Source: a virus. From it: 64,000 nt of DNA. The stretch is taken from positions 27,123 to 91,122 of the IMG/VR virus record IMGVR_UViG_3300029858_000001. The stretch is one strand, 5' to 3'. The position numbers and the translations under genes were made by a program. Below, piece after piece: positions 3,889 to 30,599 of the stretch. The stretch's first letter is position 1. Every line of letters begins with the position of its first letter. A model generated the notes under the pieces. The model had not been told where the DNA came from. It made no database searches and saw only the letters and a program-made list of their open reading frames with translations.

Positions 3889-4230
3889 ATGGCTGATAAA
3901 ACTTTAAATATTCGTATTAAGTCTAAATACGATACACTTGCTAATTGGACTGCAAACAAATCAAAAGTTTTACTTGCCGGTGAAGTGGGATTTTGTTATG
4001 TACCAGCACTTACATCTGGTACAACAACCACAGCTCCTACTGTGTTATTTAAAGTTGGCGATGGTACAACCACATGGGAAAACCTACCTTGGGGTGCAGG
4101 GCTTGGAGCAGATGTTCCGGCGTGGGCTAAGGCACCTACGAAGCCATCTTATACTCTTGATGAAATAGGCGCTAACCCTGATGCCAACTATGTAATTTTT
4201 GATTGCGGTTCTTCAACTGTAAATATATAA
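3889..4230 (+). CDS. Small tail-fiber N-terminal adaptor-module protein (VGDGTTTWENLPW motif)
   Basis: Complete ORF with RBS AGGAGG, double TAA stop and a downstream terminator. It shares the IGDG-T...NLP module with genes at 1, 5311, 22632 and 30239. Confidence 0.6.
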   Translation: MADKTLNIRIKSKYDTLANWTANKSKVLLAGEVGFCYVPALTSGTTTTAPTVLFKVGDGTTTWENLPWGAGLGADVPAWAKAPTKPSYTLDEIGANPDANYVIFDCGSSTVNI

Positions 4231-5554: not shown

Positions 5555-5914
5555 ATGGGATTATATTTAGGAAAAGAAAAAATAAATAATATATCAGTTG
5601 GAGAAGCAGCTTTAGGTATCACTGATATTTCTGATGAAACTACTATCAATATTTCAGGAATTTTAAAAGGGGAAAATCATAAAATAGTTTCAGCTACTCC
5701 TGGTGTTGATTATGTTATCCCTAATAGTTTAAATAATTTTATTACTTAGGATGATTTAAAATCAAAAGCTAATATTAATTCCCCTAACTTCACTGGAGCC
5801 CCTTTAGCTCCTACTCCTGATATTAGTATTAATAATACTTAGATAGCAACGACAGAATTTGTTAATCTTTTAATTAATAATAAAATTTCTGCTATTTTAA
5901 ATAAGGCATACTAA
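5555..5914 (+). CDS. Tail fiber repeat protein (NSPNFTGAPLAPTPDISINNTQIATTEFVN motif); read through TAG at 5747 and 5840
   Basis: Track ORF 5555-5749 extends in frame to TAA at 5912. The SP.FTG.P.APTP + IATT.FV motif is the classical phage tail-fibre repeat. Confidence 0.6.
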
Positions 5915-5928: not shown

Positions 5929-7143
5929 ATGGAAGAAAAAATATATTAGCCTTTAATCCATGGACAATTAATAATTACCCATCAATGCCAGTTAAATTGC
6001 ACTTATTGTTTTGAAAGTTATAAAGATAATAATGTTATGACATTAGATACTTGTAAAAAAATAATAACTTTTTTATCTGAAAATAATATAAATAATGAAC
6101 CGCAAGTTATTAGTTTTTTTGGAGGAGAGCCATTATTACATTTTAATGATATAATGTAGCCAATAATTAATTGGAATAAAAATGAATTACAAAATAAAAA
6201 TATGTATTTTACATTTACAACTAATGGTCTATTATTAACTGAAGATATTTTACAATATTGTAAAGATAATAATGTTAAATTTATGTTATCTATAGATGGA
6301 AATAAAGAAAGTCAAGATGCTACTAGAAAATATAAAAATAACAATAATTCAACATTTGATAAATTATCAGAAAATATTCCAAATATATTAAAATATTTTC
6401 CTAATACTACAGCTAGATTAACTATAGATGTCAATAATATTTCTTATTTAGCTGACTCTATAAAATATTTAGATGAAATTGGTTTTCAAAATTGTCATGT
6501 TATACCAGATGTTTTTTCTTCTTGGTCTTCTGAAATAGAATAGATTTATAAGGATCAATTAAATTAGTTAAATGAATACTTTATAAAAAAATTTACAAAT
6601 TATACAGTTCCTTTAATTCCAGCAACTTGGAAAGAAATGATGATAAAAAAAATTATAAAAGATTATTTAGAAGAAAATAATTTATTTAGAACTGCGGATA
6701 TCTGCCTTCCTCAAAATAGATGTGGTTTTTGTTTTCAAAGAAAAGGATTTTTTGAAACCAATGGAGATATTTATACTTGTGGACATTTAACTAATGAAAG
6801 TAAAGATAGTAATTTTTATTTAGGTAATATTTATGATAATTAGCCAATTGATATAAATAAAATTGAATCTCTCTATTTATTAAATAAAGAAAATAAAATT
6901 TTTAATAAAAATTGTGATAATAATTGTCCATTATTTAATTGCTGCACTGGCGGTTGTTTACCAAATAACTATTTAATTAATAATAATTTATTTAATGCCC
7001 CTGATGCTTATTGTAGCTGGTATAAAAATTTATTTAACTCTGTAGATTCTTTATTACAATATTTTGACAAAGATAAAAAAAATATTTTATTTAAGAATTA
7101 CTTTTATGGAGCAGTAAAAGGAGGATGCCATTATGTCTGCTAA
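5929..7143 (+). CDS. Radical SAM / SPASM-domain peptide-modifying enzyme (rSAM-1)
   Basis: CX3CX2C motif HQCQLNCTYC and FFGGEPLL. The C-terminal SPASM-like Cys clusters are CGFCFQ..YTCGH and NCDNNCPLFNCCTGGC. Frame-1 reading is continuous across 5 TAGs, joining track ORFs 6202 and 6637. Confidence 0.8.
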
Positions 7144-8107
7144 ATTATCTGAATGGCTGTTAGATGGATTAGATATCAATAAAATAGTTCATAATGGAGA
7201 TGGCAATGATTTAGTTTCACCTATATAGGATACTGATAGTGCCACTTATTCTGAATATTCTAAATATTCTAATTATTCTAATACATATTCTAGATATTCT
7301 AGGTATTCTGATTATGATAACTATTATAATTATTCTGTTTATTATAATTATTCTAATTATTCTAATACAATTAGCATTTCTGGATAGCCAGTCAGTCAAA
7401 TTATTACTTATGGTAATAAAGTAACTTTTACTGTTACTTTTTCTAAAACACCTTCATCATATCAATGGTATGTATCTACTGTTTCTTCTGGAGGTGGAAC
7501 AGCTATTTCTGGAGCTACTTCTTCTTCATATTCATTTACTCCTAAACTATCAGACAATGGAAAATATTATTATTGTGTAGCTTCATTAGGCAATACAGTT
7601 ACATCAAATTCAGCTCAATTAACTATAAAATATATTGATAGTTGTAATATTTCTACTAGCATAGGTGAATCTATTAATATATACAGTTATTTACTACCAA
7701 AATCTTCAATAATTAACTCTTATAATTTAGAAGATAATTCCATTGCTACTATTTCTGAAAATACCTTAATTGGTAATAAAGCTGGTAAAACTACTCTTAC
7801 TTTAGTAAGTAGCAATGGATTAAATAAAGCAATAGAAATAAATGTATTTGAAAATAAATTAGAATCAGTCTTATATAATATTGCTTAGGCAATAAAAAAA
7901 TATAATAATTTAAATTAGACTCTTTATCCAAATCAATTTTATAATAGTCTAAAATCTAAAAATATTAGTTCAAAAAATTATAATACTTTAGAAGATTTAT
8001 TTACAGATCTAAGTACAGTAATAAAAGAAATTAAAGGTATTTCTACTTCATTAAAGCCAGAAGAATTTTTTTATAAAATTTTGGAGGGTATAAATTATGA
8101 CAGATAA
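7133..8107 (+). CDS. Tyr-Ser tandem-repeat protein with Ig-like (BIG2-like) domains; candidate rSAM substrate / fiber component
   Basis: RBS GGAGG. The start overlaps the rSAM-1 stop and the gene ends by overlapping the rSAM-2 start. N-terminal region is YSEYSKYSNYSNTYSRYSRYSDYDNYYNYSVYYNYSNYSNT. Downstream beta-rich Ig-like region is IATISENTLIGNKAGKTTLTLVSSNG. Confidence 0.6.
7246..7372 (+). repeat. About 14 tandem copies of a 9-bp unit (TATTCTNAW) encoding (Y-S-x)n
   Basis: Direct reading of tattctgaa tattctaaa tattctaat tattctaat ... aattattct aattattct. It lies inside CDS 7133-8107 and generates spurious poly-Ile/Leu ORFs in other frames. Confidence 0.85.
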
Positions 8108-9296
8108 AGAATTATTTTTATCTTATTATAAAAAATAGAATCCAGATTTAGAAAAAAAAGTACATAATAAAATTTTAGTTTTACTTCATGGCAGTTATAA
8201 ATGTAATTCAAATTGTATTTATTGCGAAAATCATCGTTTAAGAGAAGAATATTTAAATGCTACTGTCTCTAAAAATATATTAGATCAAATTATTAAAAAA
8301 TTAGGTCCAATAATTAGAGAAATTACTTGGCATGGAGGAGAACCTTTACTTTTATCTGAAGATCTATTATCTTATTTAGAATAGCTTAAAAAAGAAAGAG
8401 GATATACTTTCCCTACAACCTTATAGACAAATTCTATATTATTAAATGAAGAAAAGTATAATTTTTTAAATAATTTAAACATTCATTGGGGAACATCATT
8501 TGATGGACTAAAAAATAATTTATCCAGAGGAGAAAAAAGTACTAAAGCAGTATTAGATTTAATATCACGACATAAAAATGAAGTAGGATTTATTTGTGTT
8601 TATTATAATGATACGATAAAAGATATAATTCAAAATTATGAATATTTTAAAAGTTTATAGATAAAAAATGTATAGTCATGTATCGTTCGAGAAAATATAA
8701 TTGAAAATTCTAATGTATATTTAATACATAATGATGATGCTTTAAATTATATGACCAATTACATAGATTATTGGATACATGATATTAATAACCCAATAAA
8801 TGATCATTATATAACACGATAGATTTTACGAGTTTTAAATGTCCCGTCTAATTGTGAAGATGATTATTGTATTGGTGGATGGATTTATATAGATGCTTTT
8901 GGCAATATAGGATTTTGTGGATAGTCTCCTAAAGATACTCCTATATTAAATATTAATGATATAAATAATTACAGTGATTTTTTAAATAATAAAAATTATT
9001 TAAATATTATTGGTAAACAAATAAAATTAGAAGAAAAATGTAGCTTATGTGAATGGCGAAATGTATGTCATGGAGGCTGTATGGGACTTAATTATGAAAC
9101 AAATCATAATTATGAAATTTTAAATCCTCGTCACTGTGAATATACAAAAAATCTTTTGACTAATGTTTATGAATTAATAAAAAACATTGATATTACAAGG
9201 AAAGATATTTATAATCCTATGTTTTTATAGTTATTAGAATCAAATTCTTACAAGACCTTAAATGAGATAAAGGAGCTAAATAAAATAAATGGCTAA
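8097..9296 (+). CDS. Radical SAM / SPASM-domain enzyme (rSAM-2)
   Basis: CX3CX2C motif CNSNCIYC and WHGGEPLL. C-terminal CSLCEWRNVCHGGCMG. Frame-0 reading is continuous across about 8 TAGs. It is translationally coupled to its neighbours. Confidence 0.75.
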
Positions 9297-10251
9297 TATA
9301 GCAATTTTAAATTATTGTAATTTATAGTGTCCATATTGCTTTGCAAATAAATTTATTACTGAAGAAAAGAAACAATTTATAACAGATAAAGAATTAGATG
9401 ATATATTGAATTTTTTAAGTCACAGCACTGATTTCGGAAGAATTGGAATTATAGGAGGAGAACCTACGATACATCCCAAATTTGAAGATGTATTTACTAA
9501 AATTTCAAATTTTGCAGAACAACATAATGTTTCTACAGTTACATTTTCAAATGGAATTGAATTATACAATTATGCTAAATTATTTAATAAACAAAATAAT
9601 GTTTTAATTAATTTAAATCATCCTGATATTATTGGAGAAGAAAAATGGAATAAAATTAATTTGACTTTAAATACGTTTAAAGCATTAAATAATTTAGATC
9701 ATATCACTTTAGGTATAAATTTGTACCCCGATATTATTGATTATTAGTATATAATAAAAATGTCTAAAAAATTTGGATTTCGAATGGTTAGATGCAGCTA
9801 TGTAGCTCCAACTTGTAATTATAATAATATTGATAAAGATGAATATTATTTAAATGCAAAAAATTTATTTCTAAATTTCATAAAAGATTGTGGGAATGAA
9901 CAAATACAAATCCATTTAGACTGTAATAATATACCATTATGTTATTTTTCAGAAGAAGAAAAAATAATATTAAATAAAAATGTGACTGGATGGCATAATT
10001 TATGCAATCCAGTTGTAGATATAACCCCTGATATGAAAGCAACTGCTTGTTTTGGAGCTTATAGTTTAATTGATTTAAAATAGTTTGATAATATTAAAGA
10101 AGCAGAAAATTATTTTTTACTTAAAAAAATGTATCCTAAAAGATTACTAAATAATGGTGGAAAATGCCAAGAATGTAAAAAATTTTTAAATCTTTCATGT
10201 CAAGGAGGATGTTTAGCTTTTACAAAAAATTCAGAGGAGGTAAATAATTAA
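9289..10251 (+). CDS. Radical SAM / SPASM-like enzyme (rSAM-3); its CX3CX2C motif contains a TAG codon
   Basis: MANIAILNYCNL(TAG)CPYCF and IIGGEPTIHP. C-terminal CQECKKFLNLSCQGGCLAF. Frame-1 reading joins track ORFs 9406 and 9760 across TAGs. Confidence 0.75.
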
Positions 10252-10252
10252 A

Positions 10253-11044
10253 ATGTCTTTAATAAGTACATCCAAACAAATAACCTCATTAAAAATAAAT
10301 AAAGTACCATCTGCAGCTGTATATGCTAAAATGGTTGCACAAAATAAAATTAATGATGATGAATTATATTTTGTTCAAGAAACTGAATAGGTCATAAACA
10401 AATTTACATTTACTGCAACAGCAGGATAGTCTACATTTACCATTCCATTCAATTTTGAAGATAGTAGCGCGCTTACAATCTATTATAATGGTATAATGAT
10501 GAAAGAAACAGATAACTATACCATATCTGGCAAAGATATTACTCTTGTAGATTTTACTGCTGAAGCAGGCGATTATCTTACTGTAATGGGTATAGAAGGG
10601 GCTGCAGCTATTGATTTTGGTAAAGAAGCAACAGAGGCAATTGCTCAAATAAATGCGACAAAAGAATCAGCTACCACTGAAATAAACACAGTTAAAACAA
10701 ATGCTATCACAGAAATTAATAATCTAGTTGCTACATTACCATCAGACACTTCTAATATTATGTTTATGAATAAAACTAATACTATGACTGCTGATGGTAA
10801 AATTACTATGAACAATGCTTACAATCCTTTAGCTAATGGAGACGTTGCTACAAAAAAATATGTTGATGATAGTAAGCCTTCGATAGTTGGCACATCTACC
10901 ACTTATCCAATTTACATTGGGTCATCTGCTCCAGCGTCAGGTACAGCCCCCTTACTATGGATTGATACATCTTCATCCGGCACATTTAAATATCGCACAT
11001 CTACAACTGGAACTTGGACCATAGTGCCTGTTGCTTGGAGTTAA
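10253..11044 (+). CDS. Tail fiber protein with conserved C-terminal module (LLWIDTSSSGTFKYRTSTTGTWTIVPVAWS)
   Basis: ATG at 10253 after GGAGG. It reads through TAG at ~10388 and ~10427 into track ORF 10496-11044. The KKYVDDS motif is present. The C-terminal module is paralogous to 14244-14678. Confidence 0.6.
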
Positions 11045-11059
11045 TAAGGAGATTAATAG

Positions 11060-12046
11060 ATGGAAATAAAAAATAGTGAAAAATTATTAGATTCTTTAGT
11101 TATAAATAAAATTCCATCTAAAAAAATTTTTAATTAGATGATTCAAGAAGGGAAAGTAAATAATAATGAAATTTATATGGTATTAGACCATGAAGATTTG
11201 CCATATAAATATACTTTCATCGCGCAAGAAGGAGATACAATATTTACTTTCCCTTTTATTGTTAAAAATCCTGAAGATTTAAATATATTTTTTAATGGTA
11301 TATTAATGACTAAAAACATAAATTATATAATTCAAAATAATAAAATTAAGTTATTAGATTTTGCAGCATCGGCTAATGATAGTATTATTGTTCTTAATAT
11401 TCGAGGAATAGATCCAGAAGATTATCTATCAGATGTAATAAATGATTTATAGATTATAAAAAATGATACTATTTAGGCTATTGATAATAAAATGAGTGAA
11501 TTGCCAGAAGATATGAATGAAATGTTATTAACCTCAAAAAATAATATTATGACAACAGGCAAAATAACTATGAGTAGTTCTTACACACCATCTAGTTCTG
11601 AAGATTTAACTGATAAAAAATATGTTGATTAGTAGATATAGAATAACAAAATTTCTAAAGTAAGTCAATTAACTAATGATGTTGGATATCTTACATCTCA
11701 TTTAGTTAGATCAGTAAATGGAATGACTGGCGATATAAGTATTAAAGGAGCTTATGTTGGAAGTTATATAGGAAATAATGCTTTAACAAAAACTCTTAAT
11801 TTTAATTTTGAACCTGCTTATTTGATGCTATTTATGGTACAAACTAACGCTGGTACTGCTCAAAATTATATGTGTGGCATACAAGGAATGAAATATCCAT
11901 TTCCTAATAATAATGGCACTTATGTTAGTTTTACTTGGAATTCAAAATCAGTTATTATTACTGCTACTAATAGTTATTATACTAATATATTCAATAATAG
12001 CAGTTATACTTATTATTACATGGCAATTCCTAAATTTAATAATTAA
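11060..12046 (+). CDS. Tail fiber protein (KKYVD and LTNDVGYLT motifs); many TAGs including three within 5 codons
   Basis: RBS AAGGAG. Frame-2 reading is continuous from 11060 to TAA at 12044, joining track ORFs 11138 and 11723. The NDxGYxT motif is typical of tail fibers. Confidence 0.55.
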
Positions 12047-12059
12047 AGGAGGCTTTTAA

Positions 12060-12482
12060 ATGTCTAAACCAAAAATTTTAGAATAGATTGAAAATGCAAG
12101 CGGTGTATTTATTGCCACTTATGGAACTACCACTTTTGCCGAAGTCAAAGCAGCTTATGAAGCAGGAAAAATTTTATAGTGTATAGATACATCAGGGGCT
12201 GCTCGCCCAATAGCTTCTTTACTATTAGCTCGTCCCAATGTAGCTTTTGTATTTGGTAATTTTAATAAAACATATTAGATAACCAGTAAAGATGTTTGGC
12301 AAACACAAGATAGTTCTTTAGTCAAAAAATCAGGAAGTACAATGACCGGAGCTTTGGTAGCTTATAATCCTACTGCGATTAATTCAAATAGTGAAATTCA
12401 TAATACAATTATAAGTACGACTGAACCAACAGCATCAGATGGCAATATCGGTGATATTTGGATACAATATGAGGGTGAATAA
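12060..12482 (+). CDS. Hypothetical structural protein; three in-frame TAGs
   Basis: RBS AAAGGAGG, ATG at 12060, frame-0 reading to TAA at 12480. Confidence 0.45.
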
Positions 12483-12495
12483 GGAGTTGATTTAA

Positions 12496-14070
12496 TTGGC
12501 AAAACAAACAATTACTTTAACTAATATGCTTACTAATCCAAGTTTTGAAAATACTGGATGGCAAGCTAACGCTAATTGCTCAGTTGCTTATGATTCTAGC
12601 ATTAAACATTCTGGCTCATATTCTTTAAAAGTTACTTCTACTTCTTCAAGTGAATCATTAATTATTACTACTAATACTTATTCTATAACATAGAATCATA
12701 TTTATTATGTTAGTGTTTGGTTTTATGAAACAGCTAATAATGTAGGATCAATGCAGTGCTATTGGCCAATTGCTGAACCATTAATTGGCACAGCAACAGT
12801 AGATTCAACCAAATTAAATCAATGGCAATAGCTTACTTGGCGTAATACCCGTTCTTCTTGGAGTACTGGAACAGCGCAAGCATTTCGTTTTGATTTTGAA
12901 AGTATGGCATCAGGCAAAATTGCTTATGTAGATGATGCTATGTTAATTGATTTAACCGCAGCTTTTGGAAGTGGTAATGAACCAACACAAGACTGGTGCA
13001 AAAAAAATATTGAATATTTCACTGGTAATACAACTATTCAATATGAAGCTCCTACTATATATGATTTGACTTCTGTAATTCCTAAGATAATTAAAACAGG
13101 TGATATATTAAATTGTCCTTATAGCGGATCTGCTAAATCAATTACTCTTCCAAAAGGATAGTATAAATTAGAATGCTGGGGCGCTTAGGGTGGTACAATG
13201 TCATCATAGGGTTATAATGGTGGCCATGGAGGATATTCAGTAGGCAATATCATTTTAACAAAGAAAGAAACATTATTCTTTTACACAGGAGGAGCAGGTA
13301 CTACTTCAAACACTAATGCTGGATTTAATGGTGGCGGAACAGGTATAAGCAATGGTAGAGGCGGTGGTGGCGCTTCTGATATTCGTATTGGTCAAGATTC
13401 TTTATATGCTAGAGTAATAGTCGCTGGCGGCGGCGGTGGTGCTGGTGTAGGTAGTGCAACTGTAAATCCAGCTGGTTGTGGTGGTGGCTTATATGGCGGT
13501 GATGGATATTATAATAATACCACGGGTCAATATACCTCTGGTACTGCCCGCGATGGTGGAGGCGCTTCACAGACTGCTGGAGGTAAATCTTGGAATACTC
13601 AACCAGCTGGCACTGGAACTTTTGGTAAAGGCGGAAATGCTTCTGGTTATTCTTGTGGTGGAGGAGGCGGCGGCTGGTATGGCGGCGGTGGTGCCTATGA
13701 TAATGACTCAGACTCTGATGGTCGTTGGGGGGGTGGTGGCTCTGGCTATGTATATACTTCATCAACCGCTTCTAATTATCCATCCGGCTGTTTACTTAAT
13801 TCGTCTTATTATTTAACCGATGCTCAAACAATTGCTGGTAATACTGCATTTGCTTCTCCAACAGGAGCAAACGAGATAGGTCATACAGGGAATGGTTATG
13901 TGCGCATTACTGTTATAGAAGCTAAGTCTGGAAATACTTTGATAAAAACTACTTCAAACACTTGGAAAGAATAGAAACAAATGTTTGTAAAAACTACTAC
14001 TACTACTTGGAAACCTATAAAAGGTGTATGGACAAAAATCACATCTGATACTTGGAAACAAACATTATAA
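12496..14070 (+). CDS. Glycine-rich domain protein (putative receptor-binding / fiber protein)
   Basis: RBS AAGGAG then TTG at 12496. Frame-1 reading is continuous across several TAGs and joins track ORF 12904. Gly-rich core YKLECWGA(Q)GGTMSS(Q)GYNGGHGG...GGGGGWYGGGGAYD ends in GNGYVRITVIE. Confidence 0.6.
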
Positions 14071-14243: not shown

Positions 14244-14678
14244 ATGGCAATAAATTCAAATACTTCTCTTAATGAATTAGTTATACATTAGGTTCCTTCT
14301 AAAACCTTATATAAAACATTAAAAGAAAATGGGTCTATTAGTGGACAAACATTATGCATTATAGATGGTGAACAAGAATAGCGTTTATATAAAGATGAAG
14401 TAAATCAAATGGCTGAAGGCGGCAAAATACAAATGGCTTCATCCTATACTCCAATAGCAGATAACGATGTATGTACAAAGAAATACGCTGATAGTATTAA
14501 TCCAAGTGTTACTCCTACTGTTGGTTTTGATTTAACCAATCAAATTTATATTGGTTCAACTGATCCCGGTTCTAATGCTGCTGCGCTCATATGGGTTGAT
14601 ACTTCTTCATCCGGAGCATTAAAGTATCGCACTTCAAAAACTGATACTTGGAAAATTATTCCTGTCGCTTGGAGTTGA
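14244..14678 (+). CDS. Small tail fiber paralog sharing the C-terminal module of 10253-11044 (LIWVDTSSSGALKYRTSKTDTWKIIPVAWS)
   Basis: RBS GGAGGGAG, ATG at 14244, two TAGs read through into track ORF 14409-14678, TGA stop. Confidence 0.55.
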
Positions 14679-14723: not shown

Positions 14724-15449
14724 ATGGCGGAAGATAAACAATATAGTTCAGGTTCGATAGTTGATATAGATAGATTAACTAAATTAAAAGCAAAAGTAAA
14801 AGCTGAATGTTTACGTCGTAAATACACTGGGTCTGTAGAGAATTACGGCGGTTCAACATATGATTTTTCTAATAATCCTATGGTAGGAGGAATTATTAAA
14901 AGAGAATATTATGATAAAAATGCCACTCCTTTAAATGCTATTAATAATAATTTAGTTCCAAAAGCAAATATAACGAACGCTGAAAATGTTGCATTAAATA
15001 ATGAAATATATAATATGGACTATTAGGTTAGTGCTTGGATGACTACTGATAAGGTTAATGATAAACATACTGATTGTGCAAATAGTTGTACAGGTTTATG
15101 TTTAAGCTGTACTGGCTCTTGTACTTCTGGATGTTCAAATACTTGCCGTGCAAATTGTGCAAATGATTGTACTGGTGTTTGCGGTGATGGTTGTACTAAT
15201 TCTTGCAGAGGATGCGGAAGTGGCTGTTCTGGTAGTTGTTATGGCGATTGCGATGGTGGATGTAAAGGCACTTGTACTGTCACTTGCGGTTATCAAGGAT
15301 GCTCTGGAGTATGCTAGGAAGGATGTAAGAGTAACTGCAGCGGCACATGCACTAAAAGTTGTGGGCGTTGTGGAAGTAATAGTTGCTCTGGAGCTTGCAC
15401 TACTTCAAGTACGGGTAATGTCACTGGTAATAGTAGCTCCAACACTTAA
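14724..15449 (+). CDS. Hyper-cysteine-rich CxxxC-repeat protein: about 100-aa N-terminal leader-like region plus about 140-aa Cys-rich region; candidate rSAM/SPASM substrate
   Basis: Track ORFs 14724-15026 and 15039-15317 are in the same frame and joined by TAG. The reading continues past TAG at 15315 to TAA at 15447. The core is CANSCTGLCLSCTGSCTSGCSNTCRANCANDCTGVCGDGC... with about 40 Cys at regular CX3C spacing. Confidence 0.65.
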
Positions 15450-15461
15450 TGAGGATAATAA

Positions 15462-16037
15462 ATGAATGAATTAAAATATAATATATATTTTACCTAGTTA
15501 TTAATAGCCATATAGGAAAATAAAGATATAACAGAATTTTGTAAAAAAATTGATAAAGAATTAAATATTGCAACTGAAGAAGATTGCAAAATAATATTTT
15601 TATCATAGTTTACTAATAATACAATTAAATTATTTAAATTTGATACCATACAAGAAGTAGAAAACTATATTCATAATCTATAGAATTGGTTAAATCAAAT
15701 ACCATGTATAACATCTTTTATTGATGTTTTTCAATATTCTTATATAATTTAGTTTATTATTATGTCAAAAAATTATTATCCTGAAATTGATTTATGTTGC
15801 AAAGATAATATACTTAATTCTATTTTAGATAATTTAGACAAAATTAAAATCAATGCTATTATTTTACCTTTTTTAAATTATTGTTTAAAATTTTATTTAC
15901 AAAAAGGTATTAGTTTAATTTATAAAAATACTTGTGATAAGTTAATTATGAATATAGAAAAATTAATGGAAAATACAAGTATTCGAAATCAAGGTATATT
16001 TAGAATACCATCGTTAGAAAAGGATTTAGAAGAATGA
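15462..16037 (+). CDS. Hypothetical protein, radical-SAM-associated
   Basis: RBS GAGGA then ATG at 15462. It is in frame with track ORF 15762-16037 across 4 TAGs, with no TAA/TGA. TGA stop overlaps the next start. Confidence 0.45.
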
Positions 16038-16303
16038 AGATACAAATTCCAAAAGAACAAAGTAATTATTTAGAAATGCTTACTTATGAAGTACAATGTC
16101 ATCAAGATTTATTAACTTTTATGGCGGCACATGGTATTGATAAAAATATTTCTCAAAATTATTATGAAAAATATCAAGATTATTATATTGAGTTAGCTTT
16201 GGCCAAAGCTCAATTAGAAAGTTATCTAAAAACTCAAATAAATGAACCATTGATTAATTGGTCTTTAGATTTTTTTAGTGCTGAGGTAAGTATAAATGAT
16301 TAA
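16034..16303 (+). CDS. Small rSAM-partner protein (paralog of 38213-38464)
   Basis: Complete track ORF. ATGA overlap with the upstream gene and an overlap with the rSAM-4 start. NYYEKYQDYYIELALAKAQLESYL is similar to NYYLQEYIKAYTDISIFKFQLFKKL in the partner of rSAM-5. Confidence 0.5.
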   Translation: MKIQIPKEQSNYLEMLTYEVQCHQDLLTFMAAHGIDKNISQNYYEKYQDYYIELALAKAQLESYLKTQINEPLINWSLDFFSAEVSIND

Positions 16304-17582
16304 ATTCCCAGGTACTGAAGAATTCACGGATACTTTAGGTCGTTATTTTGGCAGCCCAAATGTTGAAAAAACACGAACTATTACATTTCAAATAACAGAT
16401 GACTGCAATCTATGTTGCTCTTATTGTTATCAAATTAATAAAGGACATCATAAAATGCCTTTTGAGATAGCTAAAACATTAATTGATGAATTACTTTATA
16501 ATGATAAATTAATTGAAAATTATGTAAAATCAAAAAATTCTTTAGGAGTTATATTAGAATTTATTGGTGGTGAACCATTACTTGAAGTAGATTTAATAGA
16601 TTAGATTATTGATTATTTCATAGAATAGTGTATTACTTTGCATCATCCTTGGATTGATAGATTTAGAGTCTCTATTTGTTCTAATGGAGTTTTATATTTT
16701 ACTCCAAAAGTACAAGAATTTATTAAAAAGCATCAAACTCATTTGTCATTTTCAATATCTATTGATGGTAATAAAAAATTGCATGATACTTGTCGTATTT
16801 TTCCAGATGGTACTGGTAGCTATGATTTAGCAATTAAAGCCGCAAAACATTATATGAAGCATTATGATAAAAATTTAGGAAGTAAAATGACTTTATCTAT
16901 AGATAATATTAATTATACTTTCCTTGCATTAGTAAATTTATGGGAAAATGGATATAATTATATTCATGCCAATTGCGTTTATGAAAAAGGCTGGACAATA
17001 GAACATGCACGAGTTTTATATAATGAATTAAAAAAGGTAGCTGATTATCTTCTTAATAATCATTTAGAAAAAATTAAAGGTACTTCTATATTAAATCTTG
17101 ATTTAAGTCAATAGAAAAATATATCAGATCAAAATTTCTGTGGTGGTAATGGTAATATGCTCGCCGTTGATTATAAAGGTGATTTATACCCTTGTTTACG
17201 TTATATGGAAAGTTCAATAGGTAAAAATCAATTACCATATATTATTGGCAATGTTGATGATGGCATTGGATATAACCAATAGACAAAGGATATGATAGCT
17301 GGATTAGATGTAACATATAAATCACAAAGTCCGTAGGACTGTATTGAATGTCCAGTGTCAAGTGAATGCGGTTGGTGTTCTGCTCTTAATTATCAAGAAT
17401 TTGGTACTATTAATAAACGTACTACATATACATGCTTAATGCATAAGGCACGAGTATTAGCAAATTATTATTATCAAAATAAAATGGGCGGTAATTATCC
17501 ATTTTTAATTAATAGACAAGATGCTATAGATATAATCGGTGAAGATGAAACTAACTATTTAATGGAGTTAGCTAATGGATAA
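16296..17582 (+). CDS. Radical SAM / SPASM-domain enzyme (rSAM-4), paralog of rSAM-5
   Basis: ITFQITDDCNLCCSYCYQ (CX3CX2C) and FIGGEPLL. SPASM-like CIECPVSSECGWCSALNY. Frame-0 reading joins track ORFs 16296, 16638 and 17355 across TAGs. Confidence 0.8.
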
Positions 17583-18305: not shown

Positions 18306-18378
18306 GCCGGCATAGCACAGTTGGTAGTGCAGCTGATTTGTAATCAGCAGGTCGGGGGTTCGAATCCGTCTGCCGGCT
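18306..18378 (+). tRNA. tRNA-Thr(UGU)
   Basis: Hand-folded cloverleaf. Acceptor GCCGGCA/TGCCGGC, D-stem GCAC/GTGC, anticodon stem GCTGA/TCAGC with loop TTTGTAA. The T-arm has one mismatch. CCA is not encoded. Confidence 0.6.
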
Positions 18379-18457
18379 CGCTATCATGTGAAAGCCTTCT
18401 CGTGGCGATAGTGTTTTAACTAATTTCACAATTATTTATTAAAGGAGTCATTTAGAT

Positions 18458-19105
18458 ATGGCATACATTTATTAGATAACAAATAATATTAATGGAAAAA
18501 TTTATGTTGGTAAAACAGTAAAAAATAATATTTAGGAACGTTGGAAAGAACACCTTAAAGAGTATAAAAAACCTAGATGTGAAAAACGTCCTTTATATGA
18601 CGCAATGAATAAATATGGTTCAGAAAATTTTTCTATTAAAGAGTTAGAGGAATGTCCATTAGAAGAACTTAATGATAAAGAAGTTTATTGGATTGAAAAA
18701 TTAGGTTCTTTTAAATATGGATATAACGCTACAATTGGCGGAGATGGCAAACAATATATTGACTATGATTTAGTATGCGAAACATATAAGAATTTACAAT
18801 GTATTGTAGATACTGCTAAACAATTAAATATTAGTGAAGATTCAGTTTCTAAAATTTTAAAATTATATAAAATTGATATTATTCCTAATGCTAAAATAGT
18901 TCAAAATAAGTATGGGAAAATAATTAATATGTATGATTTAAATGATAATTATTTAAGGACTTTTCCATCAACAACTGAAGCAGCTAAATTTATGGTAGAA
19001 AATAAATTAACTAATTGTAAAATGACTACTATAAAACAACATATTTCTGAAGTATGCAAAGGTAAACGAAATACAGCTGCTAAGTTTAAATGGAAATATG
19101 CTTAA
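18458..19105 (+). CDS. GIY-YIG homing endonuclease
   Basis: N-terminus MAYIY(Q)ITNNINGKIYVGKTVKNNI(Q)ERWKEH... is the GIY-YIG motif. Two TAGs read through into track ORF 18605-19105. It sits inside the tRNA island. Confidence 0.75.
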
Positions 19106-19118
19106 TTATTATACCATT

Positions 19119-19218
19119 AGCCAAGATTAGATAGTTAATAAAACCGTTTCTAGTTAATAGATTCTAGATGGCCGGGACTCAAAACTGTTGGCAATTCTAA
19201 TCTTGGCTATTTTCTTTT
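19119..19218 (+). terminator. Long imperfect stem-loop (AGCCAAGATTAG ... CTAATCTTGGCT) followed by a T-rich run
   Basis: Inverted repeat read directly downstream of the endonuclease gene. It is unusually long (about 90 nt) and could also be a small structured RNA. Confidence 0.4.
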
Positions 19219-19262
19219 ATTTGAAAAAATTAAAAAAATGATATATAATATATATACAAAAT
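19212..19262 (+). promoter_or_regulatory. Conserved promoter motif (..ATGATATATAATATATATACAAAATAAAGAAA)
   Basis: Same motif family, upstream of 19300-19653. Confidence 0.5.
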
Positions 19263-19299
19263 AAAGAAAAAAATAAATGAGAAAAAGGTGTTAAAAGTT

Positions 19300-19653
19300 A
19301 TGGAATATTCTCTGGATAAGTATAAGTATTATGTCCCCACTAAGGCAGATGGTACACCATATAAGGTTGTTGCAGTTTCTACTTATGCTGGTAGGACTGT
19401 GCGTGGTGTAGCTAAGTGTGATCCGAAGGATACCTTTGATGCTGAAAAGGGTAAGCAGCTTGCTGCAGCACGTTGTCAGGCAAAGGTCAGTTCTCAGCGT
19501 CTGAAGCGTGCTACTAAGAAGCTTGATGAAGCTACTAAGGCACTTGAGAAGGCACAGAAGTATTATGATGATATGACTGTGTATTTCAATGATAGTGCAA
19601 GAGATAAGGAAATGTACGATAGCGTAGTTGAAAGACTTGCTAAGGAAATGTAA
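19300..19653 (+). CDS. Hypothetical protein (TAG-free, higher GC; paralog of 40627-41181)
   Basis: Track ORF with ATG at 19300. It shares the pattern G(T/V)A(R/K)C.P.D...EKG...A.AR with 40627-41181. A terminator follows at 19663-19690. Confidence 0.55.
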   Translation: MEYSLDKYKYYVPTKADGTPYKVVAVSTYAGRTVRGVAKCDPKDTFDAEKGKQLAAARCQAKVSSQRLKRATKKLDEATKALEKAQKYYDDMTVYFNDSARDKEMYDSVVERLAKEM

Positions 19654-19684
19654 TAAATAAGGGTAATTAATTACCCTTTATTAT

Positions 19685-19761
19685 CCGGGTGTAGTTCAGT
19701 TTGGTAGAACGCTTGATTTGGGATCAAGAGGCCGTGAGTTCAAGTCTCGCCACTCGGACCA
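19685..19761 (+). tRNA. tRNA-Pro(UGG)
   Basis: Acceptor CCGGGTG/CACTCGG, anticodon loop TTTGGGA, T-arm GTGAG-TTCAAGT-CTCGC, 3' CCA encoded. Confidence 0.7.
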
Positions 19762-20037
19762 TCAGGGTTCTGTTAAAGATACATAATTGAAAAGGATTGA
19801 TCCCCCTAAGTAAATTAGTATTGGAATGAAAAAATGAGGTCTAGATGACACAGATAACCTCCCCTGAGCCATCCCTTTTGTTAGTAGGTTGTCAGGGTTA
19901 AATAACTAACATTAAAGACACACGCAGCAAATATTAGATAAAATCTATGTGTTATTGGTTCAAGTCCAATATTATCTCTGTTAAGATAATTCGCCCAAAT
20001 GGTAGGGCAATAGCTAATTTATTTAATGTGTCTTGTA

Positions 20038-20085
20038 AATTTGAATTTTAAAAAAAAATATTATATAATATATAAGTAATCAATA
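20038..20085 (+). promoter_or_regulatory. Conserved promoter motif (TTGAATTTTAAAAAAAAATATTATATAATATATAAG) upstream of tRNA-Gln/Tyr
   Basis: TTGAAT, 17-nt spacer, TATAAT. Confidence 0.55.
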
Positions 20086-20110
20086 AGAAATTATTAATTA
20101 CTTATAATTT

Positions 20111-20185
20111 ACTGGTGTCGCCAAGTGGTAAGGCACAGGACTTTGACTCCTGTATTCGTTGGTTCAAATCCAGCCACCAGTGCCA
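20111..20185 (+). tRNA. tRNA-Gln(UUG)
   Basis: Acceptor ACTGGTG/CACCAGT, anticodon stem CAGGA/TCCTG with loop CTTTGAC, discriminator G, CCA. It is very similar to E. coli tRNA-Gln. Confidence 0.7.
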
Positions 20186-20189
20186 ATAT

Positions 20190-20276
20190 AGGTCAGTACA
20201 GTGTAATTGGTATCACCCCTGACTGTAAATCAGGTGCTTAATGCGGTTGTTGGTTCAAGTCCAACCTGGCCTACCA
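20190..20276 (+). tRNA. tRNA-Tyr(GUA), type II with long variable arm
   Basis: Acceptor AGGTCAG/CTGGCCT, anticodon loop CTGTAAA, T-arm GTTGG-TTCAAGT-CCAAC, CCA encoded. Confidence 0.65.
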
Positions 20277-20288
20277 TTTAAAATAAAA

Positions 20289-20330
20289 TTTGAAAATTTA
20301 AAAAAAATATTATATAATATATATATAATA
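20289..20330 (+). promoter_or_regulatory. Conserved promoter motif (TTGAAAATTTAAAAAAAATATTATATAATATATATATAAT) driving the large ncRNA candidate
   Basis: Motif family with -35 TTGAAA and -10 TATAAT. Nothing protein-coding lies downstream for about 1.4 kb. Confidence 0.5.
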
Positions 20331-21720
20331 AATGAACTTTAAAAATTAAATAATAATTTAATTACGGTTATAGTACAACTCAGTGTAGACTTAACACCAT
20401 AAGGCTGAGAAATCGACCCACTCTAGTGGAGATCGTAGAATGAAATATTCAAAGGATACTTTGAAATTATTTCTAAATCTTTTGTAGTGATACATTAGAT
20501 TCACGCATCGAAGGATGTGGCTACGGGGAGATTGTGCTGGAATAATCGCATTTAAGGTCCTGTTCTTCTCGCTTCCATAATAGATAGCATTGTTAATAGC
20601 AATGCCGAATCCTTGTTAGGGTAAGGCTGGTAACCTTGCCAAACCAAGGAAATACCAATAAGGAAGTTGGCAATTGATGTGGCGTAATCCACTATAAGAG
20701 AAGGTCAAGGGTCAAGTAGCCGAAATTTGCCAAGACAGTATATTTTATAGTTAATATTGGTAATTTTAGTTCTGAATGGTCGGTGAAAGATAGAGGTAGT
20801 CAGTCCTCTGTAAGATTTGGCTTAGGCTGGGGCAAGAAGTTATGAAGTCGCTATTCATAGCTCAGACTTGTTTCCTTACTTACCTAATAAAATGAAGATT
20901 ATTAATCAGTAGGGCGAAGGTCCGTAGTATAATTGTAATTAAGTTATTATTTAATAACTTACGATTCCTTTCACAAAGTAATTTTATAACGTATATAACG
21001 GTAAGAAGGTCTATAGGTAGAGAAAACTACAAAGGAATGTGCATATCTTTCCTAATTATTAAAATTACTTTAAAATGAATTATGTAGATGCTAATATAGG
21101 CGGTGGCTTGCATACTACTAATCCCATTGGGTAGCCAATCCCACATCGTTAGGGACCTCTGCGGAACCTGCTCCTATGGCTGTAGGGTTCTTACATAATC
21201 TAATCAAATAAGGTTGACTCGCCTGTTGTCCGGTGAAATGATATATCTGGAAACCGTACTGATACGTATCAGATATTTGATTAGCGTCCTAATCTTGGTT
21301 AATTAGGTAGTGGAACAATACGCTAAACCAGCCAGCTCTCCACTATAAATAAGCTGAATAGGGATGTTTGTGGTTCACATACCAAAAAGCCATTACCAAG
21401 TGCGGAAATAAGATCCTTGGTAGTCTCTCATATAAAGGCGTGGAAAATGAGACGTGATGGACTACGAAAAAGACATATAATAGGTAGAGTTATTATTTAT
21501 TGTGTTAGATTATAGAATGAAAATCCTATTATTAAAAACTGTATATTCTACTTCCTATTGGTAGGTATTATAAGTTTAATGGTAGGTCAAAAATTTAATA
21601 TATTCCAATAGCTAATGAATGAGGTAAGCTGAAGTACTTAGTGGCGTGGGCAGGCATAGAGGCGACCTATAAATGGTTAGTGGCTATGGTGTAGTTTATT
21701 CCTATTGGATATATTAATTT
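20330..21720 (+). ncRNA. Large ORF-free structured ncRNA candidate (GOLLD/ROOL-like phage ornate RNA?)
   Basis: No ORF of 60 aa or more on either strand from 19653 to 22204. Local GC (about 40%) is well above the coding background. It has many G/C-rich short helices, its own promoter, and flanking tRNAs. Class assignment is inference only. Confidence 0.45.
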
Positions 21721-21744
21721 TTGTAAATATATTATACTGAATAA

Positions 21745-21790
21745 TTTGATTTTAAAAAAATTATTTAGTATAATATATTTACAAGATAAA
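21745..21790 (+). promoter_or_regulatory. Conserved promoter motif (TTGATTTTAAAAAAATTATTTAGTATAATATATTTACAAG) upstream of the suppressor tRNA
   Basis: TTGATT, 17-nt spacer, TATAAT. A leader hairpin (AGACAGTTT...AAACTGTCT) lies between the promoter and the tRNA. Confidence 0.55.
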
Positions 21791-21900
21791 GAGAAGTTAG
21801 GATAATTTCTCTAAGACAGTTTCAGCAAATTTTTATTAAAGATAATCATATGTTTTTGGTTCATAAGAAGATACTTTATTAAACTGTCTTGTATATATAT

Positions 21901-21975
21901 TCCGGCTTTGGGTAGCGGTTAGCTCAGCTGACTCTAAATCAGCAAGTCTCAGTTCGACTCTGAGAGCCGGTGCCA
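21901..21975 (+). tRNA. Amber suppressor tRNA, anticodon CUA (reads UAG); identity probably Gln
   Basis: Acceptor 3' strand AGCCGGT pairs with CCGGCT at 21902-21907. Anticodon stem GCTGA/TCAGC with loop CT-CTA-AA (U33 present). T-arm CTCAG-TTCGACT-CTGAG. Discriminator G then CCA. Short variable loop (type I). Confidence 0.7.
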
Positions 21976-22074
21976 GGCGTAAGGCTCACGCAGCAAATTT
22001 ACTTTTGAAAGTTCACCTAAAATGAATTGCTATTTTTCAAAATTGAGTCTTGATTTAATTAATATAGTTTATTT

Positions 22075-22160
22075 GCCGGTGTGGTGGAATGGTAGACACA
22101 AGGGACTTAAAATCCCTCGGTGGCAACACCATGCGGGTTCGAGTCCCGCCACCGGCACCA
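22075..22160 (+). tRNA. tRNA-Leu(UAA), type II
   Basis: Acceptor GCCGGTG/CACCGGC, anticodon loop CTTAAAA, long variable arm, T-arm GCGGG-TTCGAGT-CCCGC, CCA encoded. Confidence 0.7.
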
Positions 22161-22164
22161 TTAA

Positions 22165-22415
22165 ACAATAGTAGCTAACGGCAGTTGAATAGACGGGTCG
22201 GGGCTAACATAGAAAGGTTAGCAGGTAGTGCGGCGGTAGGTAACAAATCCGCAAGTCGAAATGAGTTGGGAAATCCAAATGATACGGCTTAGATGTTTTC
22301 CTCACTTGAGGTTTGGATGGAGATTTTAGGCAAAGGATAACAACCTTTGACTGCCATCCTGTAAAGCGACCATGAAACAGGGTCATAGCTACCATACTAT
22401 TGTTTATTAATACCA
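22165..22415 (+). ncRNA. Second GC-balanced non-coding stretch between tRNA-Leu and tRNA-Gly (small structured RNA candidate)
   Basis: About 250 nt with no credible ORF. The minus-strand track ORF 22204-22416 has no RBS and lies in the tRNA island. Several complementary segments are visible, for example GGTTAGC..GCTAAC and CCAAAT..ATTTGG. Confidence 0.3.
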
Positions 22416-22420
22416 AATAT

Positions 22421-22494
22421 CCAGGATTAGTTTAATGGTAAAACTGGTGATTTCCAATCATCTGTTGGGAGTTCAATTCTCCTATCCTGGTCCA
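22421..22494 (+). tRNA. tRNA-Gly(UCC)
   Basis: Acceptor CCAGGAT/ATCCTGG, D-stem GTTT/AAAC, anticodon stem GGTGA/TCATC with loop TTTCCAA, T-arm GGGAG-TTCAATT-CTCCT, CCA. Confidence 0.65.
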
Positions 22495-27366: not shown

Positions 27367-27374
27367 TTAATCTA

Positions 27375-27412
27375 AAAGGACTGAAGAAATTCAGTCCTTT
27401 ATTTTTTTTTGT
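27375..27412 (+). terminator. Rho-independent terminator
   Basis: AAAGGACTGAAGAAATTCAGTCCTTT followed by a T10 run. Confidence 0.75.
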
Positions 27413-27414
27413 AT

Positions 27415-27455
27415 TTTTATAAAAAAATATATTATAATATATTTATAGAATAAAG
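27415..27455 (+). promoter_or_regulatory. Conserved promoter motif (AAAAAAATATATTATAATATATTTATAGAATAAAGAAGG)
   Basis: Same motif family. Confidence 0.5.
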
Positions 27456-27467
27456 AAGGGAAATAAT

Positions 27468-27704
27468 ATGAAAAAAATCTTAATTGATGCTCCTCTTGAA
27501 TATGTAGCTGGTCATTTACGCTATGGTCATTTAGAAGGAGTTATAGAAATATCTGATGAAGAATTTGAAAAATTTAAAAAAAATCCAATTGATTTCCTTT
27601 ATGATAATGAATACATAGATGAATTGGACCTTTTAATTGATGATTGGAGAGTTGAGGATCGCGGTCCAATTGATAGGGTTGAATGGTCGGAGTGTGAATC
27701 GTAA
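27468..27704 (+). CDS. Hypothetical protein
   Basis: Complete TAG-free track ORF. Confidence 0.5.
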   Translation: MKKILIDAPLEYVAGHLRYGHLEGVIEISDEEFEKFKKNPIDFLYDNEYIDELDLLIDDWRVEDRGPIDRVEWSECES

Positions 27705-28567: not shown

Positions 28568-28600
28568 AAAATATAATATAATTTATATAGAAAATAAATG
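28562..28600 (+). promoter_or_regulatory. Conserved promoter motif (AAAAAATATAATATAATTTATATAGAAAATAAATGAG) plus leader hairpin
   Basis: Same motif family. Hairpin TCCTCTTGTCCAAGAGGA follows. Confidence 0.5.
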
Positions 28601-28651
28601 AGAAATTTCCTCTTGTCCAAGAGGAGTCAATGAGAAAAAGGAGATTTAATT

Positions 28652-30190: not shown

Positions 30191-30195
30191 TTTAT

Positions 30196-30222
30196 AAGGC
30201 GGAGCAATCCGCCTTATTTTTA
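30196..30222 (+). terminator. Rho-independent terminator
   Basis: AAGGCGGAGCAATCCGCCTT followed by ATTTTTAT. Confidence 0.7.
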
Positions 30223-30238
30223 TATAAGGGAGAAAATA

Positions 30239-30590: not shown

Positions 30591-30599
30591 ATAATTCTT

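Follow-up and report, generated by a model that had tools for sequence, protein, structure and literature searches.

A conserved phage cassette pairing three radical SAM enzymes with a tyrosine-repeat Ig-domain protein: a candidate system for crosslinking a virion-surface protein

Do phages use radical S-adenosylmethionine (rSAM) enzymes to modify proteins of their own particles? The question is raised by a four-gene cassette at 5929–10251 of a 64-kb window, the whole stretch of gut-phage DNA analysed here (IMG/VR record IMGVR_UViG_3300029858_000001, positions 27,123 to 91,122). Three of the genes encode rSAM enzymes (rSAM-1, -2 and -3), and the fourth encodes a protein in which a tract of Tyr-x-x units precedes immunoglobulin (Ig)-like domains (Table 1). 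A first-pass annotation, made from the DNA letters, had proposed the tract as the enzymes' substrate and knew of no precedent for a phage fibre modified in this way. Our literature search likewise found no account of phage structural proteins modified by rSAMs or of Tyr repeats as rSAM targets, many subscription papers being outside its coverage. The cassette is real and conserved, and it is previously undescribed in the literature searched. With moderate confidence, and judging from sequence, we read it as a maturation system, encoded by the phage and acting post-translationally, in which Tyr side chains of a structural, virion-surface protein become crosslinked.

Table 1. Positions of cassette genes, protein segments and other features in the 64-kb window
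Feature	Position	Strand	Description
rSAM-1	5929–7143	+	404 aa; C20/C24/C27
Tyr-x-x repeat/Ig-domain protein	7133–8107	+	324 aa; presumed substrate
N-terminal segment (residues 1–38)	7133–7246	+	conserved MSxxLSxWLL(D/E)GID, then variable linker
Tyr-x-x tract (residues 39–78)	7247–7366	+	YSE YSK YSN YSN T YSR YSR YSD YDN YYN YSV YYN YSN YSN T
Two predicted beta-sandwich domains	7370–7849	+	Ig/I-set-like 80–170; Big_2-like 173–239; pLDDT >90
Predicted C-terminal four-helix domain (residues 242–318)	7856–8086	+	helices 242–258, 266–275, 286–301, 309–318; pLDDT >90
rSAM-2	8097–9296	+	399 aa; C36/C40/C43
rSAM-3	9289–10251	+	320 aa; C10/C14/C17
Fibre-module protein	12526–14070		N-terminal CBM_4_9 and ALK/LTK-type Gly-rich domain (PF12810, 164 bits)
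Cys-x-x-x repeat protein	14724–15449		241 aa; long C-terminal repeat CANSCTGLCLSCTGSC; ~850 nt upstream of rSAM-4
rSAM-4	16296–17582		CXXX-repeat-target maturase; TIGR04115, 421 bits (cutoff 350), true member
Phage tRNA-Tyr(GUA)	20190–20276		near suppressor tRNA
Suppressor tRNA, anticodon CUA	21901–21975	+	ARAGORN; required for translating all four cassette genes
SLH-domain protein	26230–27366		signal-like N-terminus
DUF2828/DUF7788 protein	28652–30190
Major-vault-protein-like protein	30767–33256		Vault_3 and MVP_shoulder domains
SPFH/flotillin protein	36977–38047
rSAM-5	38406–39755		TIGR04115, 345 bits, just below cutoff 350
CXXX target protein	39759–40568		269 aa; N-terminal 115 residues CXXX repeat; directly after rSAM-5

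Recoding, layout and conservation of the cassette

Translation of 5929–10251 with table 11 gives short, fragmented open reading frames (ORFs). All 20 in-frame stops across the four cassette ORFs are TAG (5 in rSAM-1, 4 in the repeat protein, 8 in rSAM-2 and 3 in rSAM-3), and the terminators are all TAA. Most long plus-strand ORFs of the window likewise have TAG as their internal stop. At the TAG sites, homologues that use the standard code carry an invariant Gln, for example in TTLQTNS and MQSCIV of rSAM-2 and in NYCNLQCPYCF of rSAM-3. Because every internal stop is TAG, a tRNA with anticodon CUA is present and Gln aligns at these sites, reading TAG through as Gln is justified, and on the same grounds we rejected the idea that the genes are fragmented pseudogenes. 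The suppressor tRNA belongs to a tRNA cluster at 18306–22494 together with tRNA-Gln(UUG) and tRNA-Tyr(GUA). Its derivation from the neighbouring tRNA-Gln is not obvious. The phage tRNA-Tyr could aid translation of Tyr-rich genes.

With TAG read through, the gene boundaries in the first-pass annotation proved exact. Between successive cassette genes, which the first-pass annotation had called translationally coupled, the overlaps measure 11, 11 and 8 nt, and every ATG has an AGGAGG-like Shine–Dalgarno motif ahead of it. Upstream in the window, PHROG tail-fibre matches lie at 3889–4230 and 5555–5914; together with the baseplate genes that precede the cassette in relatives, these place it in the tail-fibre neighbourhood first assigned to it, between baseplate/fibre genes and the endolysin. 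Borges and colleagues are said to have found, in 2022, that TAG-rich genes of recoded phages are typically late genes.

The genes also run rSAM-1, repeat protein, rSAM-2 and rSAM-3 in relatives L001/L002, L003 and L004/L005, which use the standard code, and in L006 and L007, which are TAG-recoded and binned in Clostridium sp. metagenome-assembled genomes (MAGs). The phages in which the cassette recurs, at 35–50% identity, are of Clostridia type. Both the 11-nt overlap of rSAM-1 with the repeat-protein gene and the overlap of rSAM-2 with rSAM-3 are kept in these relatives. Identity across loci is ~50% for rSAM-2 and rSAM-3, 25–40% for rSAM-1 and ~37% for the repeat protein; the rSAM-2 proteins of L001, L003 and L004, ~50% identical, conserve all Cys. 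Conservation of order and overlaps in five independent loci at 25–55% identity bears out the earlier view of a single operon, and comparison of the sequences supports the conclusion that the three rSAMs and the Tyr-repeat protein belong to a single functional unit. Standard-code orthologues in L001 (ENA ERZ28436057 NODE_121, genes 8797–13173) and L004 (ERZ28436111 NODE_188) mean that expression needs no recoding.

In L001 the genes upstream of the cassette are gpV, gp25, baseplate-J and several unannotated ones, and those downstream encode a collagen-like protein and an Amidase_2 endolysin. Near the cassettes of L003 and L004 there are lysins of CHAP or M15 type, and also a recombinase or integrase. 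In none of six loci is there a protease, transporter, exporter or immunity gene within or next to the cassette.

A scan of genome contigs returned two true cassette loci, both in Clostridium sp. MAGs; the other 23 matches are unrelated Ig-domain proteins. In tblastn searches of 50,697 deposited phage genomes, the repeat protein, rSAM-2 and rSAM-3 gave no match or remote rSAMs only, none of them a member of the rSAM-3 family, and rSAM-1 found relatives of at most 28% identity, such as a protein annotated as hypothetical in the code-15 phage Phass-1. Pattern scans of IMG/VR built from single cassette proteins had no matches, whereas an rSAM-3 alignment did retrieve homologues.

The Tyr-x-x tract and its association with rSAM-3

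The repeat-protein family comprises 25 homologues (P0001–P0025) with identities from 94% to ~35%. An AlphaFold2 model was built on P0001, which is 94% identical to the window protein and equal in length. The N-terminal segment resembles a leader or docking element: S6, W8 and L9 of its motif are nearly invariant at 35% overall identity, and it is predicted to be disordered apart from a short helix at residues 15–20. In the tract that follows, the predicted local distance difference test (pLDDT) score falls below 50, and residues 1–76 as a whole are predicted to be disordered. The DNA of the tract is a degenerate 9-nt array (TTATTCTAA x13, at 7246–7366; Tandem Repeats Finder), which matches the almost pure Y-S-x repeat quoted in the first-pass annotation. 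A scan for (Y..)>=5 over six frames of the window found this tract only.

The tract is selectively conserved. It is retained, at variable length, in 24 of the 25 homologues, where it ends in an almost invariant NYSNYSN(T/S), and both tract and ending are kept while the flanking sequence diverges. Residues Y64, Y67, Y70, N72, Y73, N75, Y76, S77 and N78 are invariant in the family. Among its 301 Y-x-x units the order of preference at X2 is S>Y>N, with Ser in 142, and X3 is N in 131, D in 42, V in 31, R in 28 and K in 12; the commonest units are Y-S-N, Y-S-D and Y-S-R. The window protein, with ~13 contiguous Y-x-x units, conforms to the aromatic-X2-X3 pattern of triceptide substrates. The window region has 23% GC, and repeat-protein homologues from genomes of 38–41% GC keep the tract. 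We rejected an AT-rich composition artefact, since Tyr tracts are conserved in genomes of 38–56% GC.

Beyond the tract, the high-confidence model agrees with the Ig-like domains recognized at first reading, for which Pfam gives weak matches to Ig_3 and Ig_7. Foldseek relates the folded part to phage Ig-like tail and decoration proteins, the top PDB structural match being capsid decoration chains of phage N4 (9e99_J/K). N249, A253, Y283 and P309 are conserved in the four-helix domain, which is possibly a virion-attachment module. The only Cys residues of the protein are Cys148 and Cys171, none within the tract, and a sulfatase-type [CS]x[PA]xR motif is absent from it.

These features bear on whether the repeat protein is a structural component or the precursor of a secreted peptide that is synthesized ribosomally and modified post-translationally (RiPP). 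Multi-core RiPP precursors are known, and here the layout is leader-core-like, with a repetitive core behind a conserved N-terminal motif, beside enzymes of the SPASM class that dominates RiPP maturation. The modified tract might then be excised as small bioactive cyclic peptides, with the Ig and helical domains as carrier or follower. We consider this very improbable. The expected short precursor, leader-binding domain and leader protease or exporter were not found: the substrate has 324 aa, its units adjoin one another without intervening cleavage sites, and Pfam and NCBIfam scans detected no RiPP recognition element (RRE) or PqqD domain in any of the three enzymes. The 245 folded C-terminal residues are, moreover, conserved and decoration-protein-like. 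Thus the lack of an RRE, protease and exporter, the conserved Ig-like domains, the site in a baseplate/fibre-to-lysis module and the TAG-rich genes argue for maturation of a structural protein over a secreted peptide, as the first-pass annotation had suspected.

Three fibre-like proteins encoded nearby (10253–11044, 11060–12046 and 14244–14678) share an N-terminal L.(I/V)(N/H)(K/Q)(V/I)PS module, to which LLDGLDINKIV of the repeat protein is partly similar. The first and last of the three also have a common C-terminus, (Y)IGS..P......(L)(L/I)W(I/V)DTSSSG..KYRTS..(G/D)TW.I(V/I)PVAWS.

For rSAM-3, a compact and widely distributed enzyme that serves as the signature of this group, we obtained 967 word-indexed homologues and, at E<=1e-30, 607 clusters at 50% identity, essentially none of them named. 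A human-gut contig (L113; ERZ1035037 NODE-1, 185,021 bp, coverage ~1215) has an rSAM-3 at 98% identity. On distant jumbo-phage contigs, rSAM-3 occurs alone or with an rSAM-2-like gene and adjoins Tyr-repeat ORFs. In six loci (L031, L032, L035, L036, L037 and L043) the neighbouring ORFs have hyper-Tyr C-terminal tails with up to 26–28% Tyr; elsewhere the repeats are period-4 YSSQYNGQ or YSTRYGTC (L038 and L040), YRDYDDTP (L057) or an 11-residue GYxxYSDHTNT unit (L045 and L046). Across rSAM-3 loci the spacing of Tyr has periods of 3, 4, 8 or 11 or is irregular. By homology these Tyr-repeat proteins form at least four groups with no relationship to one another; they are encoded upstream or downstream of the enzyme gene, in one case in a genome of 56% GC. 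The rSAM-2/rSAM-3 pair spans three genetic codes (standard, TAG-recoded and TGA-recoded). The last is represented by L033/L034 (JGI Ga0310690_10000062, 232 kb), where an in-frame TGA aligns with a conserved Trp and the pair is placed after three fibre-like genes.

We then compared rSAM-3 loci with control loci holding other rSAM genes. Loci from IMG/VR, ENA and JGI were pooled and collapsed at 85% identity, and a locus was scored positive if a neighbouring ORF had at least 9 Tyr per 30 aa. For rSAM-3 homologues of at least 36% identity, 19/32 informative clusters were positive, against 1/45 controls (Fisher's exact, p=1e-8). At a threshold of at least 12 Tyr the counts were 14/32 and 0/45. The rSAM-3 branch below 36% identity gave 3/29. 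These counts are conservative: two loci that are positive by inspection escape the ORF-based test, L032 because its code is miscalled and L038 because its period-4 tract goes unrecognized.

Because Tyr repeats lie near rSAM-3 on at least four unrelated scaffolds, in varied positions and at varied GC, their association points to a functional link and not to shared descent. Together with the gene coupling and the selective conservation of the tract, it indicates that the Tyr tracts are the likely substrate and rSAM-3 the likely core enzyme. The enrichment over control rSAM loci thereby lends support to the substrate proposed at the outset.

Some rSAM-3 loci show further features. In L031 (8001–10691) and L032 (3554–5974) the gene after the rSAM-3 homologue encodes a conserved protein of 212–227 aa, and a GT8 glycosyltransferase comes next. 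GT8 includes glycogenin, which glucosylates Tyr; by sequence, hyper-Tyr tails may be Tyr-O-glycosylated as well as modified by rSAMs. In L048 and L056 (7001–9946 in L056), a truncated rSAM-3-like gene and an rSAM-1-like gene stand ahead of a 288-aa protein with a Cys/Gly-rich segment and a C-terminus that, judged by eye, is like a tail-fibre/tail-spike intramolecular chaperone domain. This looks like a further variant pairing rSAMs with a fibre protein. Enzyme-substrate fusions were sought among long homologues of rSAM-3 (P0157 and P0158) and rSAM-1 (P0301) and rejected, the extensions not being Tyr-rich.

Enzyme families and candidate chemistry

All three enzymes belong to the radical SAM superfamily (Pfam Radical_SAM, PF04055: 57, 48.6 and 46.5 bits for rSAM-1, -2 and -3; cutoff 29.5). 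The N-terminal CX3CX2C motif and C-terminal Cys clusters reported for each of them at first reading stand, on motifs and on conservation in homologues: CX3CX2C is conserved among homologues of all three, rSAM-1 of L003 excepted, and each enzyme has at least seven conserved C-terminal Cys. The seven-Cys signature of SPASM/twitch auxiliary clusters (CX9-15GX4C...CX2CX5CX3C...C) is recognizable in CX10GX4C...CX3CX5CX3C...C of rSAM-1 and CX10GX4C...CX2CX5CX3C...C of rSAM-2. In rSAM-3 there are eight conserved downstream Cys, including CX2CX7CX3C.

Comparison with SPASM subfamilies by hidden Markov models was a check proposed in the first-pass annotation. rSAM-2 matched the generic SPASM model (TIGR04085, 34.8 bits, cutoff 27); that model apart, none of the enzymes reached the cutoff of a curated NCBIfam family, whether triceptide, anaerobic sulfatase-maturating enzyme (anSME) or thioether maturase. 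The best match of rSAM-1 was PapB (NF047865, 176 bits, cutoff 340), followed by SCIFF (TIGR03974, 122, cutoff 425), the CXXX maturase (TIGR04115, 113) and QhpD (110). Among PDB sequences the closest to it is CteB (94.8 bits), and the rSAM-1 family is narrow, with ~16 clusters at >=37% identity confined to cassette contigs. The enzyme does not qualify as a ranthipeptide-type thioether maturase of the PapB/SCIFF kind, and the substrate is not Cys-rich. rSAM-2 matched DynA best (85 bits, cutoff 450), then anSME (83.5), with DarW, YhhB and AmcB also among its hits; its family profile aligns full-length with anSME 4k36 (144 bits), the best PDB sequence match. By sequence we class it as anSME/daropeptide-maturase-like. 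For rSAM-3 the NCBIfam matches are to core-domain models only (MoaA, viperin), and its predicted fold has two equally good best matches, anSME and the cyclophane synthase ChlB.

Models of enzymes that form three-residue cyclophanes (3-CyFEs) scored far below their cutoffs. For rSAM-1 the values were 91.6 for YhhB (NF041707, cutoff 445), 60 for GrrM/OscB (TIGR04261, 310), 60 for FxsB (TIGR04269, 370) and 53 for AmcB (NF041718, 425). rSAM-2 fell short with 62 (YhhB), 60 (AmcB), 39.5 (GrrM) and 37 bits (XyeB, TIGR04496), and no 3-CyFE model appeared in the best 25 of 28 NCBIfam matches of rSAM-3, all below 50 bits. The anSME models (TIGR03942/NF010308/NF010321) gave 108, 83.5 (rSAM-2) and 24.9 bits against a cutoff of 349, and on TIGR04115 the cassette enzymes had at most 113 bits against 350. 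We therefore rejected membership of the triceptide, daropeptide, Hxs or CXXX families, all scores being below cutoff. Thioether (sacti/ranthi) chemistry on the tract was rejected too, since the tract has no Cys. The first-pass annotation had named anSME-type enzymes acting on a sulfatase as the counter-case to its proposal. rSAM-2 is indeed nearest to anSME by profile, yet no sulfatase domain was seen among the proteins scanned and the neighbouring protein has no (C/S)xPxR motif; with the scores below cutoff, we rejected such a system as well.

How does the cassette compare with known systems? With the triceptide 3-CyFEs (XyeB, GrrM/OscB, FxsB, YhhB, ChlB and MicB) it has the aromatic-X2-X3 motif logic in common. 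It differs in having three enzymes instead of one, all below every 3-CyFE cutoff, no leader protease, and as substrate a 324-aa folded Ig-domain phage protein and not a short leader-core peptide; its ~13 units, variable in number, exceed those of typical triceptides. Like anSME/AtsB, its enzymes would be RRE-less SPASM rSAMs that modify a full-length protein rather than a peptide, but there is no sulfatase gene. The CXXX-repeat maturase also stands beside a protein with a long short-period repeat, and two such systems occur in the window; there, however, the repeat is of Cys, presumably for thioethers, with one enzyme each. His-Xaa-Ser systems (HxsB/HxsC) similarly combine several rSAM/SPASM enzymes with a tripeptide-repeat target built on one aromatic or heteroaromatic residue, but they are bacterial and act on His in a small peptide, and the HxsB model gave 89 and 50 bits against 370. 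The SPASM enzymes DarE, DynA and DarW likewise have no RRE and produce aromatic crosslinks of the C-C and C-O-C types, whereas here there is no W-x-W type motif, and theirs are secreted antibiotics with exporters.

Two precedents come from outside these families. Several intra-protein crosslinks are placed in a structural subunit by QhpD, itself an rSAM/SPASM enzyme, although these are Cys thioethers in a bacterial enzyme subunit. The HK97 chainmail provides a precedent for covalent crosslinks that reinforce a virion, although its isopeptide bonds form autocatalytically and are not installed by radical chemistry. From all of these the cassette differs in its unnamed enzyme families, its Tyr repeats fused to Ig-fold phage proteins, and its occurrence in a virion structural module across three genetic codes.

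Aromatic-X2-X3 is the triceptide substrate motif, and a YSK cyclophane has been characterised; darobactin and dynobactin maturases reportedly share their origin with 3-CyFEs (PMC12912966). The DynA, DarW, YhhB and AmcB hits of rSAM-2 and the ChlB-like predicted fold of rSAM-3 are consistent with this. From sequence, three-residue cyclophane chemistry on the Y-(S/Y/N)-(N/D/V/R/K) units is plausible. The triceptide chemistry suggested at first thus holds in part: the Y-x-x motif fits and the predicted fold of rSAM-3 matches ChlB, but no 3-CyFE cutoff was reached. Since those scores are so low and Tyr spacing varies among distant tracts, we do not file the system as a triceptide and say instead that it works like multi-site Tyr crosslinking.

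A different chemistry on the same tract is unlikely in our estimate, though several results speak for it. The enzymes might convert Ser of Y-S-x to formylglycine, which then condenses, or form intermolecular Tyr-Tyr or Tyr-X staples between subunits, which would correspond to dityrosine under anaerobic conditions or reinforce the virion like chainmail. The full-length anSME alignment of the rSAM-2 profile, the equal likeness of the predicted rSAM-3 fold to anSME and ChlB, and Ser as the commonest X2 residue all fit such schemes, and the periods of 4, 8 and 11 or none in distant tracts show that a strict i/i+2 unit is not conserved. The formylglycine variant, however, is at odds with the distant anSME cutoff and the lack of a (C/S)xPxR motif, and it is Tyr, not Ser, that is invariant across scaffolds.

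In the crosslinking scheme that we infer, which covers modification of the tract, the type of bond, how the enzymes share the work and incorporation into the virion, the repeat protein would be made late, together with the three rSAMs, as a docking motif, a disordered tract of ~40 residues, two Ig-like domains and a helical end. The enzymes, which would carry auxiliary Fe-S clusters, would use 5'-deoxyadenosyl radicals to abstract H atoms in the tract, leading to covalent side-chain crosslinks that involve the tyrosines. The likeliest bond would join the Tyr ring to Cbeta or Cgamma of the second residue after it, so that a row of three-residue cyclophanes results. A floppy linker whose many Tyr are chymotrypsin-type cleavage sites would thus become a rigid, protease-resistant rod on the virion surface. 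rSAM-3 would act as the core Tyr-tract enzyme and rSAM-2 as a frequent partner, for a second link type or a subset of units; rSAM-1 would be a lineage-specific accessory, maybe mainly a scaffold or chaperone.

Several observations weigh against crosslinking of the tract in a virion protein. No cassette enzyme reaches the cutoff of any cyclophane-forming family, and the nearest relatives of rSAM-1 make thioethers, but the tract is without Cys. In L003 the rSAM-1 orthologue (910–2037) has lost CX3CX2C and GGEP and retains the SPASM-region Cys and a C-terminal LF(K/R)DYFYGxVK tail. By its sequence it is probably a pseudo-enzyme kept for a non-catalytic role, and its loss of the radical SAM cluster motif means that not every cassette requires three catalytic steps. 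In the automated test, about 40% of the clusters in the core clade had no tract within 3.5 kb, and L033/L034 keep rSAM-2 and rSAM-3 (53–58% identity) with no Tyr tract within 7 kb. The tract holds four N-x-S sequons, and its N-Y-S sequons could indicate glycosylation instead. Virion association, finally, is suggested by gene position and fold only.

Some of these points would suit a tract that is a mere flexible linker, possibly glycosylated (at N-Y-S sequons or as a Tyr-O-glycan), with the rSAMs targeting another fibre protein, a cofactor or nucleic acid. The sequons, the pair in L033/L034 that lacks a nearby tract, the GT8 gene two genes downstream of rSAM-3 in L031 and L032, and the pairing of other rSAMs in the same window with Cys-repeat proteins are all compatible with it. 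Yet no glycosyltransferase occurs in the window cassette or in L001–L007, rSAM-1 keeps its tight overlap with the start of the repeat-protein gene across loci, and the association of rSAM-3 with Tyr tracts on unrelated scaffolds is hard to explain if the tracts are irrelevant. We judge the linker explanation distinctly improbable.

If crosslinking of the tract is borne out, radical SAM chemistry on peptides would no longer stop at secreted natural products but also shape how virus particles are built, with the first enzyme-installed radical crosslink known in such a particle and a new class of SPASM substrate. Anaerobic phages would reinforce or functionalise exposed proteins through enzymatic C-C crosslinking, a plausible benefit being resistance to gut proteases that cut after Tyr. 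A function would be assigned to an unnamed family of more than 600 sequence clusters, and there would be an explanation for one kind of low-complexity tract seen in the fibre and decoration proteins of phages. Enzymes that are processive on simple Tyr-x-x repeats fused to folded domains would also be new, and attractive for protein engineering. More tentatively, it is possible that hundreds of gut and rumen phage lineages (standard, TAG- and TGA-recoded) use the rSAM-3 family to introduce Tyr crosslinks into their own virion-surface proteins, an anaerobic 'structural RiPP' chemistry yielding rigid, protease-proof rods or inter-subunit staples.

Other features of the window

rSAM-4 and the Cys-repeat protein upstream of it make up a second rSAM/repeat-protein system in the fibre module, with one unannotated ORF (15462–16037) between them. 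A third in the 64-kb window is formed by rSAM-5 and the CXXX protein. L031 encodes an rSAM-4 homologue of 50% identity (14996–16948) that is apparently interrupted by an intein (Pfam Intein_splicing, 781-aa product).

The region 26230–38047 is an almost TAG-free block, bounded by the genes for the SLH-domain and SPFH/flotillin proteins (Table 1). A pair of DUF2828-type and major-vault-protein genes, as found in this block, recurs in the distant jumbo-phage locus L032. The fibre-module protein with CBM_4_9 has a Gly-rich domain, and a similar Gly-rich segment ends a 1344-aa fibre protein of L057 (924–4958).

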